DNA of 64,000 nucleotides from Lophium mytilinum (Eukaryota): the NCBI GenBank assembly GCA_010093605.1, contig MU004189.1, forward strand, positions 1,929,834 through 1,993,833. The letters are read 5' to 3'. Below the pieces are notes generated by a model. The model worked only from the letters and a program-made list of their open reading frames with translations. It was not told the DNA's origin and ran no database searches. Positions within the stretch are counted from its first letter, which is position 1. Every line of letters starts with the position of its first letter. Shown here piece after piece: positions 13,166 to 64,000 of the stretch. Position numbers and translations under genes: made by a program.

Positions 13166-13286
13166 CCTATCCCGCCATCCTGCCCCGGTGTCGACTGCCA
13201 CAGCCTTAGCCATACTGTCCTCTTGCCCTGGTGTTGACCATCCAGCCCATCCCGCTATCTTGCCGCGGTGTCAAATGCCACAGCCT
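13166..13286 (+). repeat. Degenerate direct repeat of about 40 bp with an 80-bp period
   Basis: atcccgccatcctgccccggtgtcgactgccacagcct (near 13169) vs atcccgctatcttgccgcggtgtcaaatgccacagcct (near 13249). Confidence 0.75.
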
Positions 13287-13658
13287 GTCCTCTAGCGTCA
13301 TGACTCCAGCTGTCTGTATAGCGCCACCCCGGGGAGACACTCTATGGCGAGATGTGTCTATCTTACAAGAGGCACATTTTGAAAAGAAGATGACAATTGA
13401 AGATATCATTGCGGGCGGGCTACTTAAGGGTATTCGGCAGATGAGATTAGGGAGCTTGCAACCCAACGGGGCCTCGATCCTAATCATCCGTCATTGCCTA
13501 CGGGGCGGAACTGGACACTATGGGAGGACAGTAGGCTACTTGGATCAGGCGCAGTGCCTGGCAGAACAAAAAGGGCATGTAAGGACCGATCGATCCAAAG
13601 TGTCTTAATGAGTTTTTGGAACGCCATATATATGGCAGGTGAGCACCTAGTAAACTGG

Positions 13659-13913
13659 CACGCGGGGGACACAAAAAGCCGTACACCAAAACCGCTTATC
13701 CTTTTCAGAACACAATTACACCCCAACGCTCTGAAGGAATAGCATCTTCAAAGACAACAATAATAATCTTTAGAAGTAGCTCTATCCGTTAGTCCAAGTT
13801 TTGTACACTTATACTAAGTAGTGGTGGCTAAAGACTGCTTTGCGTTAAGGTGTATTTCGCTGACCTAAGCGATTTTGGTGGTTTGGTGTACGGCTTTTTT
13901 TGTCCCCCGCGTG
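13659..13913. mobile_element. 255-bp non-autonomous TIR DNA transposon (MITE) with CAC...GTG ends and a 5-bp TSD (ACTGG); Transib-like terminal signature
   Basis: Left TIR CACGCGGGGGACACAAAAAGCCGTACACCAAA matches the reverse complement of the right end at 31/32 positions; ACTGG lies at 13654-13658 and 13914-13918; the interior is non-coding and TA-rich. Confidence 0.88.
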
Positions 13914-14134
13914 ACTGGCTAGAGCAGCTTAGATAGTGCCACAGGGGTTTCGTAGATCGAAAACATCCTGGCACTTACACTTCCCCAACAACGTACACTT
14001 GTAAAGTAAGAAATGCTGGACACAACAAATTATCATTCTTCTTCAGCATTACTCCCCACATGACCTATCTACACAGAATCCAGAGTCCCCCAAAACGTCG
14101 TCCACCGCCGCGCTTACCCAATTGTATCACCGCT

Positions 14135-52845: not shown

Positions 52846-54975
52846 GATGATACGGGCTGATAGCACACTTTACAATGTTAAGGATGTCGTGTCAGGATGT
52901 TAGGAGGCATGAGGGTCAGTCTTGCACAGTAAAAGGAGAAACTCGCTCTTCACCTCCAAGAGCACTCGAGGCAGGCACGGCCTTGGGAGACTCTCATCCT
53001 CCCGTGCCTCTATGCTTGAGAGGGAGTGGCAAATCCTCGCCTAAAGAGGCATGTCGGGAGCAGTAAATTGATTCGGTGGTTGCACTTGAAAGGGGCGACA
53101 GATCCGAAACGCCATTGGCGGCCATTTAATGAGGTCTGCGTCGTCCACCGCCATGTGTGGTTTGACTGGCCTGCATTATAGTGCGTAGACGCGGCCTAGG
53201 CCTCTGTAAACATGTTATTTCTGCGTGTTCAATGCAAGACGGAGGAGTTTTGGAGACAGAATGCGAGGAGGACACATGGATGCTAAGCGCCCTAATTATG
53301 TAACATTTCCCAGCACCACTCGGGACTGATTTATCGGGTGCGAAATAGCGTAGAATCCTTAGCACATTTTTCTTAGCGTTCCTTACTAAACTTTATATAA
53401 GGATTATAGGGAGCACTATCTATTTAAATGTTAGCCTTTTAATATCCCCCTAATAATAATAAGTAAGGTTTCTTACCTATACTATATAGTTACTTACTAA
53501 TATTTTCTTAGTATTTTAGTACCCCTACTAACTACCTATACTAATAGAAGATATATTTTCTTTATATCTAGTAACGCGCCTACTAATACCCCCCCTATTT
53601 AAATAAGCCTAAGAACTACTACTATAGTAAGTATAGTAACGGGTAGTAGAAAGTCTACTACTCTAAAGGTAGCGTATAAGCCTTTAAAGCTAAAGGCTAC
53701 TATACTAAAGAAAATACTACCTCTAGTATATATATAGATACCTTTTATAAAGGCTAGAGTATTAGTATAGTAGAATAAGTTACTAGATATACTAAGTAGC
53801 TCTTTAAGAGTTAAGAGGGGGCCTATAAAGATAGCTATAAGTAGTAAGAAAAGCTCTAAAAAGGTAGCTATAAGTAGTAAAAAGAGCCCTAAAAAGGGCT
53901 CTAAGAAGGTAGATCTAATAGCTATTAGTTCTAGTAGTATTAAGAGTACTACTAGTACTAGTAGTACTATCTAGTACTATATTAAAAAGAAGAAAGAGAA
54001 GAAAAAAAAGATTAATAACTTTTTAGTTACTCTATTCTATATTCTCTATATTAATAGAAAGAAGGTTAGTAATAAATAACTAGAGAACTCTATATACTTT
54101 ACTCTTAATATAAAGAATCTAAAGTTTAAGCTAAATATAATAGTATTAATAGCGCAGGTTAATAGTAACTATAAGAAGAAGTATAAGATTATCTAGTATA
54201 CTACTATTATTTATATAATAAAGGGGACTAGAGGCTTTCTTAGCTATAATATAGCTAACTTTTTACTCTTAGAGTTCTAGCGGGTATTCTATATACTTAA
54301 TTTAAAGTAGAAAGACTATCTAAAGGCTACTATTTCTACTATATTTAAGTATAAGTTAATTTATAAGCCCCTGCCACCACTATTAAAGAAGAGAAAGAAA
54401 GTAGAGGTACTATTATTCTTACTAGCTAGTACGCTATCTATAGATAGGTTCTATACTAGGTATTATAGTAATTATAGCGGAAAGCTATTAAAGTAGTAGG
54501 TAGTCTATTTAGAGTTACTTTTAGTATCTAGCTACTAGTAAGTTAGTATAATATTAGTATATAAGTATACTAATAATACCTATACTAATATAGGTAACCT
54601 ATACTTTATTAATAATAATAAGTAGTACTATATAATACTCTTTAAATACTATAAGTTATAGATAGATATAATTACTTAGAGGAATACTATAATCTCTTAG
54701 CTATCTAATAAGATATATAAGAACCTTATAAGAGAGGGTCTAGTTAAAAGTAACTACTAGCGCACTATAAAGTTAACTTAGGTATAAAAGTCTAAAAATA
54801 AGATAGCTAGAATATTTAATATAATAGAGCACTTAATAAAGCTCTAGATATAGTAGAAAGATATAGAGATAGTAGATTAGATAGTATTATAAAGCGCTTC
54901 TTCTTAAAGCGCTTTTTCTTCTTCTTCTTTTTTTTTTATTTAGCCTTAGTATAGCCTTTCTCTATAGGCTCTATA

Positions 54976-55197
54976 TATTATAGCATAAACCTAGAATTAT
55001 AGTAATTATATACTAAGATTACATGTAGCCCCTTATATAACCTAAGTAAGACGCTAGCCCGAGGCGCTAGGCCGCGGCCTATACGCTGGCGTTAAACTAT
55101 AACCTCTTAAGAGCTCCTAGCTCTCTCTCTTCTTCTTAGCTTAGATTTTTATAATAGTTAATATACCTTATTACTTATATTATATTAGCCCCCTATA
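54976..55197 (+). repeat. 5' LTR (222 bp)
   Basis: Ungapped alignment to 62488-62709 with 10 differences counted by eye, all transitions. Confidence 0.93.
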
Positions 55198-58100
55198 TAA
55201 TCTAAGCTTACTCTTCTATACTTAGAATCTTATTAATTTTTTCTAGAACTCTATTATAAGATCTAGGCGTTTTTACTAAAATAACTTAAATACTAGCCAG
55301 CCTAGCTGTATAGCTACGCGCGGCACCTAAATCTAACCTAGTAGATAATCTAGCACCGCCTCCTTTAAATAAGCTAGTTAATCTAATAGCTAGGCTTTAA
55401 GATAATTTAAAGACTCTAGGCGCTATAAGTAGCGCTAACCTAAATACTTTAGAATATACTTCTATAACTCTATTAACCGCTAGCAATAAGAAAGCGCGCT
55501 GCACTACTTAACTTGCGCGCTTTTAAGGTATAGTAAAAGGCTCCTCTATTCTAGCTATTATTTCTAGCTTCTAGTATAGAACTAGAGGACTAATTTTAAA
55601 TATCTAAGAAGAAACCTAAGCCTTCTTATAGACTATAGATAATACTTAGCGCGCTAACACCTAGCGTGCTAATGCCTAGCGCGCTAATACCTAGCGCCCT
55701 AAACGCTTAGTAGATAATTAAGTTAATACTACTAGAACCTTAAACTAAAACATTACTAATAAGCTTAACCTAGACTATAACTCTAATAATAAAGGCAGCT
55801 TTATAACGCCTAGCGCTAATATATTAGGTAAGCGCACTATCTAATTTATTATAGAAGATAATATATATAAGCCTCTAATATAAAAAGATAGTAAGCTGCA
55901 CCCTATACATTACTAAGTATTTATAGTAGACTAATAAGCCTCTATCTTAGTTATATATTATAAGACTAAATAGATTCTAGATACTAAACCTAAGTATATA
56001 GATATTCTAGAGAAACTATAAGAAACTAATCTATAGCGCTATATATAGCTACTAGTCTAGCTTCTTAACTATTATAGTAATAGTACTATAACTATTAATA
56101 CTATAGTTACTAATAAGACTAAGTTTACTATAGCAGTAAATAAGAATAACCTAGTATAGTAGAAATTCTTCTAGAAGCTCTATATAGAGTATAAAGTAGG
56201 CTTTAAAGAAGCTAATAATAAAGATAAGCTCTATAATAAACTTTAGAATAAATACTAAAAGTATAAATAGAATACTGCTAATAATACTACTATAGTAGAA
56301 TAAGAACTAAAGGCCTATTATACTAAGTAGCTCTAGCAAGTTATAATTAGTTAATAGGCTAACCTTAAGCTTAACTAGATGCGCCTACGCTATAATTACT
56401 AGTGTAGTAAGTACTAGACCCTTAAAGAGATATATAAGAAGCTTACTACTTATATTAAGAAGCTTAAATAATAGCTTTATTAGTAGAGCCTATAGCCCTT
56501 AAACCCTAATTATAACTCTAATAATAATAATAGTACTTATTCTCCTACGCCTATAGTTCTACTTTGCTATTATTCTATTAGCTAGCCCCTGCAGTTTAAA
56601 CCTATTAAGAGTAAGTCCGCCACTCTATTTACGCCTATTTAGAATCTTAGCGCATATATAGTAATATCTTATTACCCTAATCTAGATAAGTTTAGTAGTA
56701 GTAATAAGAATAAGCTATTCTACTAGTAATAGCGCATATAGATACTTAGTAAGCTAGATATCTACGCACTACTATACGCTACCGCGCATTATTATATAAT
56801 ATATATTTATAATAGGCTTAAGAGAAAAGCCTTTAATATAATCTTCTATTGCGCTAAACCTAATAGTAATAAGCTATACCTCTCTATAGAAAAACTAATT
56901 AATAATCTAGATAAGGTCTATAGACCTTTTAATAAGGCGGCTAATATATATACTAATTTATATAATAGTAAGTTTATATAAAAGAAAGATAAGCGGGTTA
57001 TAACTTAGGTAGGGCGCTTTAATACTAGTATAGCTTTCCTCTACTTTAAAGACCCTAAGAAGATCTACTATATATAATATAATCTTGCTAATAGCCTTAA
57101 GTATAAGGTAGCTAATAGATAAGATACTAATATAATAACCTTTATTACGTTTCTATAAACCTTAGAATTCTAGCTTAATATTATTAAGCTAAATAGGGAT
57201 AACTATAAGAATAAGAATAAGAACGCCCCTAAGTCTACGCGTAATACCTATAAAGCTACCGGTGCTAGATCTACCTCTACTATACCTCGCCGCCTGCTAC
57301 TTACTAACGCGGAGCATATATCTAAAAATAATACTAGTAACGCTACTTTAAGTACTAGTGTAAATAACTTACTAGGGCCTTTTAGTTATAATTACCGCAC
57401 TATTACTTATCTTAAGTAGCTAGGTTACTACTAGAACTATCTTAAATATAGATATATAGCTAATAGCAACGCCCTATATATTAGCTAATAGCTAGTTCTA
57501 ATCTATAAGGTTAGCGGCCTTATAAATAAGATTAGCCTCACTAGTATTAACATTAATATTAGCGCTATAAATACTAGCTCTACCTATAATAAGATAATAG
57601 AAAATACTTAGTTTTTAGTAATAGTTACTACTAAGAACCCCTAATAGTCTTTAATAATAAGAAACTAAAAGCAATTATAGATAGAATTGCTATTTTAGAA
57701 TAAGAAATTAAGCTAGTTATAGTATATATATCTACTCTTATACTCTAGCTAGTTAATAGTAAATAATTTAGCTTTTTAGGTAGCATCCTCTAATCTAATT
57801 TATTTACTACTAAAATTCTTTCTAATATAGAATTAGGCTCTTAATTTCTTTATTTAAAGACCGCGCGCCTTTATAAGATACCTACTTAACTCTTTTTATA
57901 ACCTGTTATTCTTAAGCTTATAAATAGTAAGCCCTCTATTATATTAGACCGCGCTATAGATATTACCTTCTATATAGGTAACTACTATAATATAGTTACT
58001 TACTATATTACTAATACTAGATAATATAATATAATTTTAGATATACTCTAGCTATAGCTTTATAACCCTACTATTAGCTTTAGAAAGATACAACTTATCT

Positions 58101-61100
58101 TCTAATCTAACTACTATATATCTAACTACCTATAGTATAGTAGGCTAGTTATTATAAAGAGCCTTATCTATTTAAAATATATTAAAATTAAACTATACTA
58201 GAACCTAGGCGATTTCTATAGCTCTTAATATAACCCTAACTCTAACCCTAACTCTAACTCTAACCCTAATTCTAACCTTAGCCCTATTATTAAAGGGCCT
58301 AATAATACTAAAGACTCCCCTTAGCTTAACTATAATAGGAAACCTCTTCCTTCTAAACTAGTTCTACCGGATAAACTACCTAAATATAATATTTAGTTTA
58401 TCTCTATATACGCCTGTTCTACTATAGTAAAATAAGATAAGAACGCGGTAATAACTATTACTTTATAAGACTTTAAGTAATTAGACTAACTAGATAAAAT
58501 AGATAAGTAATACGCCTACGGGCGCTAGATAGTAAACCTTATAGGCGTTACTATAGAAGATTACTATTAATTTAAGAAGAAGATAACTAAATTACCTTAT
58601 ACTAAAGATTAGCTATAGTAGAAAGTTCTACTTTTCTTCTATTAGATTCTAGACGCTTTTAATCTATAAGCAGCTAATAAACTACTACTATATAGGCATA
58701 GTATAGACTATACTATTAACTTTAAGAATCTAAATATAAAACCCCCTATTCTGCGCTAATATAGCCTCTCTTATAATAAGCTATATACTATTAAAGCCTA
58801 TATTAATAAAATACTTAGAAAGAGCTTTATTTACCCTAGCACATTACTATTTACGGCGCCCGTTATTATTATCTATAAGCTAGGTAAAGAACTCTATATC
58901 TATATTAATTACTACTTACTAAATAAAATTATAATTAAGAATAGAAATATATCTTTTTTCTTATATAATATAATTATACAGCTTTATAAAGCTAAGATAT
59001 ACTCTATCTTTAATATTATTACCGCATTTAATAATATCCGCGTTAAGAATAGTAACTAGTATAAAATAGCCTTCCGCACTTAATACAGCGTCTTTAAATT
59101 TAATATTATGCCCTTTAGCCTATATAATGCTCCCGGTATATTTTAATTATTTATTAATTCTATACTATATCTATACCTAGATATCTACTATATAGCTTAT
59201 ATAGATAACGTTCTTATCTATAATAATAATAAAGAAGATTATAAAAAGAACTATATAAACGTTCTTATAGTACTATATAATATAGGACTCTTTCTTAATA
59301 TTAATAAGTGTTATTTCTTAGTTAAATGCGTAAAGTATCTTAGACTTATTATTACGCCTAATAGCATAGAAATAGACCTAACTAAGGTTAGCGCTATTTA
59401 AGACTAGAAGCTGCCCCGTAATATTAAGAATATTTAATTATTCCTTAGCTTTTATAATTTCTATTAGTAATTTATTACTAGTTATTTATAGATTGCCGCC
59501 CTACTAACTAAGCTTACTAAGAAAATAATAGAATAAGGTAACTTTCCCTTACTTACTAATAGTCTAGTAGTATAAGCCTTTAAGAAGCTTAAAGCCTTAT
59601 TTCTATCTATACTAGTTCTAGCCTACTTTAATCTAGATCTAGACTATATACTAGAGACTAACACCTTAAATTATATTATAGCCGCAATCCTCTCTTAATA
59701 AGGCCCGGATAGAATCCTCCGCCCTATTGCCTTTCTATCTAAGAAGATAACTCTAGCGGAATACAACTATAAGATATATAATAAAGAGTTACTTACTATT
59801 ATCCGCGCCTTTAAAGAATAGCGCCCTAAACTTACTAGTATTATTAACCCTATACTTATATAAATAGACTATAAAAACCTAGAATACTTTATATCTTCTA
59901 AATAGTTAAATTGCTAATAAGCCCGTTAGGCTAAATATCTTTCTTAATTTAACTTTATTCTAAACTAGCAACTAGGCAAGCAGTTAACTAAGCCTAATAG
60001 CCTTACTTATAGGCCTAGCAATATTCTAGATAATCTAAATAACTCTAGAACTATGTATTAAATATAGATAGTATTAAAGAAGAGAAACCTACTAGAAAAA
60101 ATATACTAAGCTCTATAGCTTGCTAGCATGCTCCTTAATAAATAGAAAGTATCTATTATCTAGCTTACTAAGCTAATATATAAAGTTATAGAGTAACACC
60201 CTATAAATATTCTATATATTATTCTAGTAGCTAATAGAATAAGAGAAATAAAGAAACACTTAACTAAGATTGCAGCTAATTATAGTAAGTTAGATAAAGA
60301 TCTATAGAATACTACCCCTAATATTATTATATCTACTATGCCTTAACCTACGCCTACGCCTACAGCTACTAATAATCTATCTAGTAAAGGAGCGCCGGAA
60401 GTATCTAAACCTAGTAATAAGTTAGATAAGGACTTACTAGGGAACTATACTAATAACGCTACTATCTAGTAGATTAATTAAGCCTATATAGAGGATAACA
60501 TCCTCTAGCATATTATATATACTAAGAAAACTAGTAAATAATATATTCTACTTAAACTTATTTAGAAATAAGGTATTAAAATTAAGCTTAGTAATTATAA
60601 AATCTATAAAAATAGACTATTTATTAACAGCCGCCTATATATTCTATATAACGTAAAGCTCTATACGCAATTAATTAAGGAAGCCTATAACTCTCTCCTA
60701 AAAGGCTACGCTAGAAGAAACTCCCTCTACTATTGCCTCTTCTTCTAGTACTACTAGCTAGGTATTATAAACTCTATTACTATATATATTAACGCCTATT
60801 TAATATATAGATATACTAAGGTCTATAAAAATAGTAAATATAGCTTACTTAAGCTACTACCTATTCTAAATTAATACTAGATAGATATCTCTATTAACTT
60901 TATTACTAAGCTACCCTCTTATACTATTAAGGGCTATACATACTAATATATTATAGTAGTTATTAACTAACTATCTAAAAAGCGTAAGTTTATCCCCCTA
61001 GACTCTATAGAGCTAGAGAATATTACGTAAGCCTTTATTAACTAGATCTAGCGTAAGGAAGGCTATCTAGACTATATTATATCTAACTATAGCGCGTAGT

Positions 61101-62487
61101 TTATATTCTTCTTTTAGAAGCACCTCTATAAGTATATAGAAATATACTTAAAGCTATCTACTATAGCCTATCTAGAAATAGATAGATAAACTAAAATTAT
61201 TAATATAGGTTTAAAGTAATACCTACGCGCGTATATCTACTACCTATAGAATAACTAGGTAAATCTAATTATATTTACTAAATTTAAGGCTAACACTAAT
61301 ATTAATTAGTCTACTAGCGTGTTACTATTTAAAGCTACTAAGGGCTATACACCCTATAGTAGCTTAGAGCCGTTATTTTAAGATATTATTATTCTAGGCC
61401 CTAAGCGCTAAGGAGTTAACGCAGCTAAGAAACTTATTACGCGTATTTATAATCTATAAGAGTTCCTTAAAGAAGAACTCTATTAGAATTAGTCTAAGAT
61501 AAAGGAGCTAGCTAATTAAAATTAGCTGCCCGCCTTTAAGTTTAAAGTTAATAATATAGTTATACTAAATACTAAGAATATTTATACTATATAACTAAGT
61601 AAGTCCCTTAACTATAAGAACCTTAGTCCCTTCTATATAATATAAGTTATTAATAATATAGCCTATAAGCTAGAACTTTCTAAGTCTATAAAGGGAATCT
61701 TTCTAGTATTCTACCCCTAGCTACTTTATTAAATTAATAAGACGCCTCTTCTAGAATAATATCTAGAACCCCTACCTACGCTTAAGATAGAAGAAGATAG
61801 CTTTATAGGTTAGTTCTATATTAATAAAGTCCTTAACTTCTAGTTTAATAGCCGCTAACTAAATCTATATATAGGTAAGAAGCCTTACTTAGTCTATAAG
61901 ATAGCCTAGACTAGATATAATAATACCTAGCCTAAATAGAAGCCCTATTAGAACGCTAATAGATGTAATAAACTCCTTATAGAATACTACGCAAAATATA
62001 GTCTTAAAGTAGAACCTTATCTAATATTTAGCACGTCTAAATAGAAGGTCGCGAAAATAATAGGTAAAAGTATAAGCGCTACTACAGCAATAGTAGGCCT
62101 ATAGAATATTCTTAGCACTAGCCTAAGTAAGTATAAATAGTAACCTTATTAGGTAGCTAAGTTATCTTATAAGAAGGCTATTCTATATAGGTAACCTAAA
62201 GTAGAACTCTAATAGGTAGAAGCTAATAATAAGCCTTAGGTTAATTTATATAGCCCGCTTATAGCGCTTAAGAATAAATATAAGAATAAATATAAGAATA
62301 AAAATAATAGAAATAATAGAAATAATAGAGATAATAGAAATAATAGATATAGTAAGACTATAGATAATAGTAAGTATATATATAGTAAGGCTGCATAAGT
62401 AGCTTAATAGAAACGGGATAGAAAGAATAGAGAAGCTATAATATATTATAAGCCTTATAGAACTTTAGCTTTTAAAGAGGGGGGTAG

Positions 62488-62709
62488 TATTATAGTATAA
62501 ACCTAGAATTATAGTAATTATATACTAAGGTTATATGCAGCCCCTTATATAACCTAAGTAAAACGCTAGCCTAAGGCGCTAGGCCGCGGCCTATACACCG
62601 GCGTTAAACTATAACCTCTTAAGAGCTCCTAGCTCTCTCTCTCCTTCTTAGCTTAGATTTTTATAATAGTTAATATACCTTATTACTTATATTATATTAG
62701 CCCCCTATA
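62488..62709 (+). repeat. 3' LTR (222 bp)
   Basis: Follows the polypurine tract, matches the 5' LTR and is followed by the CTATA TSD. Confidence 0.93.
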
Positions 62710-63326
62710 CTATAGATATATATATAGCTCTTCTTCTCTCTACTACTTAGGCTATAGAGTTATTACTAGCCTATATTTATATTTTAGCCTTTAATACTAC
62801 TATAGCTATAGTATACTCTTTTCTCTAGCTAACTATTACTAGCGTACTATTCTTATAGCTTAAGCCTAGTATATATAGAGAAAGACGCTAATATACTTAA
62901 GTTCTTCTTCTTCTAGAAGGTTAGAGTAATTATAAATGCGGGTATAAAGTAGTAGTAGTAGTATACTATATAAGTTATTATTAATTAGATATAGAATATT
63001 AATTTTCTTTAGTAGATATAGAATAGATTCTTAAAGATATACTATATAGCTCTAGCTCTAGAGCTATTAAATAGAATAGTAATATAGTTTATAAGAGAGC
63101 TATATAACTTTAAGAATCTATATAGATAGAAGAAGGCCGTGTTAAAGGCACTAACTATACTAGAAGAAGGCGGAGTAGATTAGAACGGGCGTAGAATATA
63201 TAAAGGAGTTAGAATGCAGTTAGATATTAAATAGCTAGTTAAATAGAGTAATTAGTATTATTCTATATTATTATAGTTTTATATATATTATATATAGCCT
63301 ATATAGCCTTACTATTTAATATATAG

Positions 63327-63637
63327 TCTATATAGCCTTTCTATTTTAAATTAGAGGCTATTTATAAAGTAAGGCTTAAGTATTAGTGCGGGCAAAATAT
63401 AAAAATATATCTTAATATTTTATAGCTTAAGTATTAGTAGTAAGAATCTTAATCTAATATTTTAAGGCTTAAGTATTAGTAGTAAGAATCTTATTTTAAG
63501 GCTTAAGTATTAGCGCAGGGTAAATTTCCTCTATGCTAATACTTAAGCCTTAAAATATTAAAATAAGATTCTTACTACTAATACTTAAGCCTTAGGTTAG
63601 ATTATATATAGAGTATAAAATAGAAAGGCTATATAGA
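63327..63637. repeat. Fold-back (nested inverted/direct repeat) structure
   Basis: Outer 22-bp inverted pair TCTATATAGCCTTTCTATTTTA (63327) / TAAAATAGAAAGGCTATATAGA (63616); the unit (AAG)GCTTAAGTATTAG occurs four times forward (63371, 63422, 63464, 63498) and twice inverted (63536, 63578). Confidence 0.8.
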
Positions 63638-64000
63638 AATATAATCTATTACTTTATTATATCTTAGTAAATATAAGTCTAAATTATATAAATAGATAGC
63701 TAAATTACGCATCTAGATATATATATTTACATCCGCGTACTAGATATATAGAAATATTAATTAGTAGTAATAATCTTTTAAAGTTATAGTTATAGTTTCT
63801 AAATGCATAGTTAAATAGGCTTAATTCTCTACTTCTTTCTTCTAGTATAACTAGCCCTAGGCTTTAGAGCCTACTTAAACGCTACTATATCTTCTATAGT
63901 ATTAATCTAAGTATAGTACTTACTTTTAACTCTATATATACTATATTTACTATCTAGATTATTATTAGTATAGAAATTAATATTATACTAATAATAGCCC

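Follow-up and report, generated by a model that had tools for sequence, protein, structure and literature searches.

A CAC-ended fungal MITE with 5-bp target-site duplications that very probably belongs to a Tc1-type transposase lineage

The 64,000-nucleotide stretch of Lophium mytilinum DNA analyzed here (the window) contains a short element that begins with CAC and lies between two copies of a 5-bp sequence. CAC ends together with GC-rich 5-bp target-site duplications (TSDs) are the signature given for Transib transposons (PMC1131882, accessible part), and a sequence-only reading of the window had accordingly proposed a non-autonomous element of a Transib/RAG-like family or, failing that, of a new CAC-ended family. 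The locus therefore raises the question of which kind of transposase moves this element and makes its duplication.

The window element and its copies in the genome

Recomputing the coordinates and the complementarity of the ends returned the proposed element, a non-coding MITE of 255 bp (positions 13659-13913; subfamily A of the three described below), with the perfect ACTGG duplication claimed for it. Its TIR arms are 97% complementary, with one mismatch over 32 nt. The features are as follows.

13654..13658, plus strand: left copy of the 5-bp TSD, ACTGG
13659..13913, no strand assigned: 255-bp MITE, subfamily A; the interior is homologous in the 13 copies, with no homology to the long elements
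13659..13690, plus strand: left TIR of 32 nt; over its first 29 nt, one difference from the TIR of the C16 and C18 elements, which bear the transposase
13685..13698, plus strand: left inner motif (the "nonamer"), overlapping a CACCAAA core at TIR position 26
13866..13879, minus strand: right inner motif, containing another CACCAAA core that is offset inward by 8 bp from the first
13882..13913, minus strand: right TIR of 32 nt; over its terminal 29 nt, no difference from the C16/C18 TIR
13914..13918, plus strand: right copy of the 5-bp TSD, ACTGG

The MITE is intergenic. It lies 221 nt past the stop of a minus-strand reading frame with a muHD domain, which we take to be Syp1-like, and about 2.4 kb upstream of a minus-strand PAS/histidine-kinase reading frame. 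Two diverged direct repeats at a spacing of 70-80 nt (13166-13296) also lie in intergenic DNA, upstream of the kinase gene. At the far end of the window, positions 53500-64000 form an AT-rich block (24-38% GC) without a match to the MITE TIR, which probably consists of RIP-mutated repeats. Rfam gave no meaningful match to the MITE interior; its one chance match lies outside the element.

DNA, pattern and protein searches of the genome, whose copy counts are lower bounds, identified at least 13 two-ended MITEs (252-256 bp) and at least five long elements with a common CACGCG TIR. One further MITE, at C6:96578, has lost one end. Since these searches scored the best candidates only, a further partner element could have been missed. 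Singleton pattern matches on C2, C3, C7, C19 and C20, with no partner end within 1.5 kb, were discarded as chance matches. The window element belongs, as a non-autonomous copy, to a multi-copy family with CAC ends.

Three MITE subfamilies (A, B and C) can be distinguished, with 56-73% identity between groups. In the alignment of the 13 copies (A3), the length of 252-256 bp is held across these groups, and the two TIRs of one copy tend toward common private variants. The constant length and the matched TIR variants suggest a length constraint and homogenization of the ends. The long elements measure 1,443 bp (C5), 1,441 bp (C16 and C18, each) and 1,291 bp (C1). The fifth, on C2 (G000:C2:1552962-1597509; L090, L091), is interrupted, and its TIRs lie 44.5 kb apart around nested DNA. 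This copy has the same 5-bp duplication outside both TIRs, and the roughly 43 kb inserted near its 5' end are AT-rich and RIP-like in the parts sampled.

The partner transposase and its link to the MITE

The long elements share one layout, in which a CACGCG TIR of at least about 29 bp is followed by a single HTH + DDE_3 gene of about 365 aa and by the second TIR, for a total of 1.3-1.6 kb. Direct reading of the sequence revealed a RIP-broken Tc1-type transposase reading frame in all five, with one intron in C16 and C18 and none in C1. The long elements with matching TIRs that had been proposed as the place to look for the enzyme thus encode a Tc1-type enzyme in every case. C16 and C18 differ at 90 positions, all of them transitions and 81 in CpA/TpG context, which is the signature of RIP. 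The terminal 100-150 bases of the elements on C5, C16, C18 and C1 (L026, L034, L036 and L045) are GC-rich, and their interiors are RIP-damaged; because the ends have been spared, TIRs and TSDs persist on these dead copies.

No Pfam family was matched by two RIP-damaged exons of the own copies, and domain, spacing and fold were scored on intact homologues. The 3' exon of C16, translated with X at stops, retrieved eight intact full-length relatives at 51-59% identity. All eight matched DDE_3 (E 5e-11 to 0.008; two of the eight above the curated cut-off) and three of them weakly matched a Tc3-type HTH (HTH_Tnp_Tc3_2). On the same eight proteins no hAT, CACTA/CMC or Mutator Pfam domain was found, and the TSD is 5 bp, not 8, 2-4 or about 9. 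Among near-full-length homologues the D-D-E triad is kept in 137 of 177, and a set of four cysteines, arranged as one CxxC motif in the linker and a second in the loop after the first Asp, occurs in 142 of 177. The D-E spacing is 37-38 in 106 of the 150 homologues that have the second D and the E, within a full range of 34-51.

When PDB sequences were searched with a family profile, SB100X was the sole significant match (E 1.7e-13). A structure model built from a 59-row alignment (mean pLDDT 84.9) retrieved Sleeping Beauty, Mos1 and SETMAR/Metnase as all 15 listed rows up to rank 17, with E values of 1.5e-10 to Sleeping Beauty and 3.8e-10 to Mos1, followed mostly by retroviral integrases; no RAG1 or Transib entry was among the listed matches. 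We are therefore confident that the enzyme of the family is of Tc1 type and not of Transib/RAG type. It has DDE_3 with a short D-E spacing, the Mos1/Sleeping Beauty fold and a TIR-transposase-TIR arrangement of about 1.3 kb, but not the TA duplication. Because of this last point we speak of a lineage of Tc1-type enzymes and do not assign it to canonical Tc1.

Between the interior of the MITE and the long elements there is no homology. The MITE is consequently not a simple deletion derivative, and it is the TIRs and TSDs that tie it to the enzyme. In a comparison over 29 nt, the seven subfamily A copies are nearest to the C16/C18 TIR (0-5 mismatches), the window copy being identical at its right end and one base off at its left. 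In subfamily B, the copies on C6 and C4 come closest to the C2 element TIR (1-2 mismatches), and in subfamily C, copies C14 and C9b come closest to that of the C1 element (2-3 mismatches); the decayed B copies C13b and C15 match poorly, with 8-16 mismatches at the aligned ends. The window element is thus short, non-coding and multi-copy, and has TIRs in common with transposase-bearing elements. Together these data make it very probable that it is a MITE of a fungal Tc1-type (IS630-Tc1-mariner) lineage that no longer targets TA.

The family extends well beyond this genome, to 358 clusters at 50% identity (E up to 1e-30). Its named hosts belong, as we assume, to five classes of Pezizomycotina: Dothideomycetes, Sordariomycetes, Leotiomycetes, Pezizomycetes and Orbiliomycetes. 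One identical protein is present on 14 contigs of Pyrenophora tritici-repentis and another on seven of Botrytis deweyae. In the P0170 cluster, an intact multi-locus transposase of P. tritici-repentis is labelled "HMG box protein", a mislabel that has been carried over to homologues in Rutstroemia. Searches of bacterial and archaeal genomes, viral contigs, plasmids and phages returned no relatives.

Scanning metagenomes yielded 42 loci, of which 19 were two-ended and 17 remained after removal of the duplicate loci L054 and L083. An exact 5-bp duplication flanks seven of these 17 elements and TA flanks none; simple arithmetic gives an expectation of about 1 in 1,000 for a random 5-mer match. Ends were clearly of CAC type in 13, which include all seven with a duplication, and uncertain in four, which include none; the CAC-ended elements are 0.8-1.6 kb long. 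Assembly collapse or decay may explain the 10 elements that lack a 5-bp duplication. Four of the seven duplicated elements have an intact ORF, of 365-390 aa, and L049 and L053 are intact copies with 99.3% identity that occupy different sites and differ in their 5-bp duplications. Judged from their sequences, these two and the intact relatives in P. tritici-repentis and B. deweyae have apparently been mobile recently. In a quick maximum-likelihood tree (63 rows, careful search unfinished, midpoint root), the 5-bp members are scattered over a 44-row group that is itself of low support (SH-aLRT 80); the tree holds one TA-type row, on a long branch, and no named impala, TRT or Tc1 references. In a search of sequencing runs, two probable source runs matched, and these alone cover the locus, so that the set offered no empty site; one air metagenome matched with a small share. 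This air metagenome run (X3), whose coverage did not extend to the flanks of the window MITE, contained MITE-like contigs that are mostly less than 95% identical and have differing flanks from the exact left terminus.

A more distant DD34E DDE_3 element on C8 (L127; G000:C8:830069-831545) has CTCTAC ends and a 6-bp duplication, or one of 4 bp when each end is placed one base further out, and has homologues in Rutstroemia and in metagenomes. A 240-bp MITE with ends similar to it (L131; C10:123073-123312) has a 5-bp duplication. Of the further CTCTAC-type MITEs, two are decayed and without a clear duplication and one is without a partner end. The two insertions L127 and L131 hint at a second or wider non-TA group.

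The Tc1 gene might instead be a passenger in a CAC-ended shell, with a different enzyme making the 5-bp duplication. The unrelated interiors of the MITEs would fit such a cargo, and it is sequence, not biochemistry, that ties the Tc1-type protein to the duplication. However, an unbiased search for inverted repeats around the ORFs recovered a CAC-type TIR wherever the result was clear (locus L053/L054 showed an additional, shorter outer repeat) and no inner TA-flanked pair. In addition, the intact ORFs begin 83-145 nt from the element end, transposase subfamilies, which are about 45-68% identical, have different TIR variants, and the size of the elements is that of an ordinary Tc1. We consider a passenger gene highly unlikely.

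Resemblance to Transib ends and the target-site duplications

The proposal that a RAG1-type transposase moves a MITE with RSS-like ends drew on the CAC ends and the GC-rich 5-bp TSD, both of which the family indeed has, and on the inner motif. As had been described, 19 nt separate this motif from the terminal 7-mer on the left and 27 nt on the right, and the asymmetry is kept in all 13 MITEs. These spacers are not the 12 and 23 nt of RSSs, and the asymmetry arises because the CACCAAA motif is tandemly repeated, at 8 bp, at the right end. The resemblance of the left motif to the RSS nonamer is real (8 of 9 positions) but weak: the right end matches at 7 of 9, a second 8/9 match is present at spacer 5, and when the 43 nt that follow the heptamer were shuffled 20,000 times, 2.2% of the trials gave an 8/9 match, as did 5 of 1,059 windows of 50 nt. 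In nearly all Transib ends, CAC and nonamer positions 5-6 are conserved (PMC1131882, accessible part). Among 40 ends of 20 elements of the present family, with a tolerance of one base to either side, the corresponding AA is present in two at the RSS12 position and in eight at the RSS23 position. In the three MITEs examined, the CACCAAA core is found at position 26, with a second copy 8 bp further in at the right end, and it recurs at positions 43-55 in the long elements; we infer that it is a putative transposase-binding repeat and not an RSS.

Transib was absent from 1,730 fungal genomes according to the accessible part of one survey (PMC5751038), though it has been reported in soybean rust (PMC1131882, accessible part). 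A RAG1 Pfam search of the genome was empty, as was its control search, and it was given no weight. With a Tc1-type enzyme in all five long elements that bear the CACGCG TIR, a protein fold of the Sleeping Beauty, Mos1 and SETMAR kind and the RSS-critical AA rare, the Transib/RAG assignment has to be abandoned as extremely improbable. What holds of the sequence-only reading is its fallback, a new CAC-ended family, for which no published description was found in the literature searched.

Tabulation of the TSDs, which the same reading had named as a check, gave a consistent length. An exact 5-bp duplication is present at the aligned ends of 17 of the 18 copies in the genome, MITEs and long elements taken together (15 of 16 in the scored table, plus the C15 and C2 copies), and none of the 18 has TA on both sides. 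When lengths of 1-12 bp were scored on 16 copies, 5 was the only length above 3 that was found. In the exception, C13b, a 5-bp repeat appears if one assumes the loss of two bases at the right end. The GC content of the 17 duplications is 67%, and they follow the loose palindromic consensus S-C-W-G-S. As a control, a DD34E Tc1 element on C2 (L126; G000:C2:151062-152356) has the normal TA on both sides, and the method therefore recovers TA where it is present. The inverted ends of this element are perfect over about 50 bp, and it has just three in-frame stops. That the ends were misplaced and the true duplication is 3 bp or TA has a negligible probability: six of the 17 TSDs have complementary first and last bases and would allow 3 bp, but the other 11 exclude a 3-bp reading because theirs are not complementary, the length scan singles out 5 bp, and no copy is flanked by TA.

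Proposed mechanism, age and comparison with known systems

A Tc1-type enzyme could move the MITE in the following way. A dimer of transposase made by a long copy would bind both MITE TIRs in trans, pair them and cut the ends, resulting in double-strand excision. The ends would then be joined to the target strands at a stagger of 5 nt, not 2, and repair would yield the 5-bp duplication; TA-reading contacts may have been lost as the stagger widened from 2 to 5 nt. Dimeric pairing, cutting and strand transfer are steps of Mos1 and Sleeping Beauty biology. Each MITE subfamily would be moved by the transposase with its TIR variant, the window copy presumably by the C16/C18 type. A four-cysteine metal site formed by the two CxxC motifs might, speculatively, help to set the geometry of the dimer, an idea weakened by the C8 lineage (L127), which lacks the motif and yet is non-TA. 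All five long copies were later killed by RIP, with the 255-bp MITEs largely escaping. Since all five long copies found are broken, activity in this strain today is unlikely.

The insertion in the window had been called recent. Intact duplications in 17 of 18 copies argue for little change since insertion, but none of the 12 other copies exceeds 86% identity to the window copy. It differs from the subfamily majority at 24 positions. Eleven of these are transversions and only five are in RIP context, and RIP was accordingly rejected as the source of the MITE divergence. The simplest reading is that the window copy came from already-diverged donors that are missing from the assembly.

We lean, with modest confidence, toward the broader view that an undescribed, Pezizomycotina-wide branch of Tc1/mariner has lost TA targeting and converged on the Transib/RAG signature, with a CACGCG clade (CxxC/CxxC) making GC-rich 5-bp duplications and a related CTCTAC clade making duplications of 5-6 bp. 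Such a lineage breaks two rules, as worded in the accessible parts of the sources: that a TA duplication is among the defining features of the IS630-Tc1-mariner group (PMC7325037) and that CAC ends with a 5-bp TSD denote Transib/RAG (PMC1131882). Fungal MITEs with CAC ends and 5-bp TSDs risk being misfiled as RAG-related, as happened in the first reading of this one. If the view is correct, a Sleeping-Beauty-like enzyme inserts at GC-rich non-TA sites, and the lineage is a natural model for a reprogrammed strand-transfer stagger in a Mos1/Sleeping Beauty-type transpososome and possibly a gene-transfer tool with a different insertion profile. Because intact, apparently recently mobile copies exist, the basis of TA specificity and of the stagger in Tc1/mariner would be directly testable.

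In comparison with the Tc1 family and Sleeping Beauty (SB100X, PDB 5cr4), the present family has in common DDE_3, a GRP-like linker, an SPDLxPIEN motif and the Mos1/Sleeping Beauty fold. Like Tc1 elements, its members are about 1.3-1.5 kb long, with TIRs of about 30 bp, MITE partners and a weak Tc3-type HTH (in three of eight). They differ from the Tc1 family in making a GC-rich 5-bp duplication instead of TA, from Sleeping Beauty in having FSDEVH and EDGDSGH in place of SDETK and HDNDPKH, and from both in the two additional conserved CxxC motifs (142 of 177). A changed duplication length has a precedent in Zator, which is IS630-related and has a 3-bp TSD. Judged by the title of a cited reference (in PMC12730594), hAT5, of the hAT group, is a precedent for a changed superfamily duplication length.

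Fungal Tc1/mariner duplications, where stated in the accessible parts of the sources compared (PMC7325037, PMC2836289, PMC13469147, PMC9977792, PMC3441728, PMC10853768, PMC12730594, PMC5751038, PMC12506042, PMC6737239, PMC4112212, 10.1101/108332, PMC7174668 and PMC1131882), are TA or undefined, with the exception of the ambiguous DTT_Birute. The impala and TRT groups are given there as DD37E (PMC7325037). The Verticillium DAHLIAE elements are, in the accessible text, D-D35D with TA and not DD37E elements with introns. DTT_Birute of Zymoseptoria tritici, compared by description only, is likewise of fungal Tc1-mariner type, with a 343-aa ORF and an "inverted" TSD, but is 1,884 bp long with a 62-bp TIR; its printed "TA/CTCGTG" may stand for TA plus terminus, which would be ordinary, or for a CACGA-type end, and it was absent from Repbase when described (PMC7174668, accessible part). 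Neither an account of Tc1-type elements that make 5-bp duplications nor a paper with the TIR letters was found in a literature search whose scope lay outside Repbase, Dfam and most subscription journals, and the five family peptide motifs are absent from the six readable supplements of PMC7325037, a set that leaves aside its FASTA alignments. A prior record of the family is possible.

With Transib/RAG1, as described in the accessible part of PMC1131882, the family has in common the 5'-CAC ends and the GC-rich 5-bp TSD. It differs in the D-E spacing (about 37, against 206-214 in Transib and 206-253 in Transib/RAG1 overall) and in protein size (about 365 aa, against a core of about 600 aa), and it has neither the RSS nonamer conservation nor the 12/23 spacing. 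Its likeness to Transib/RAG in ends and target is convergent.
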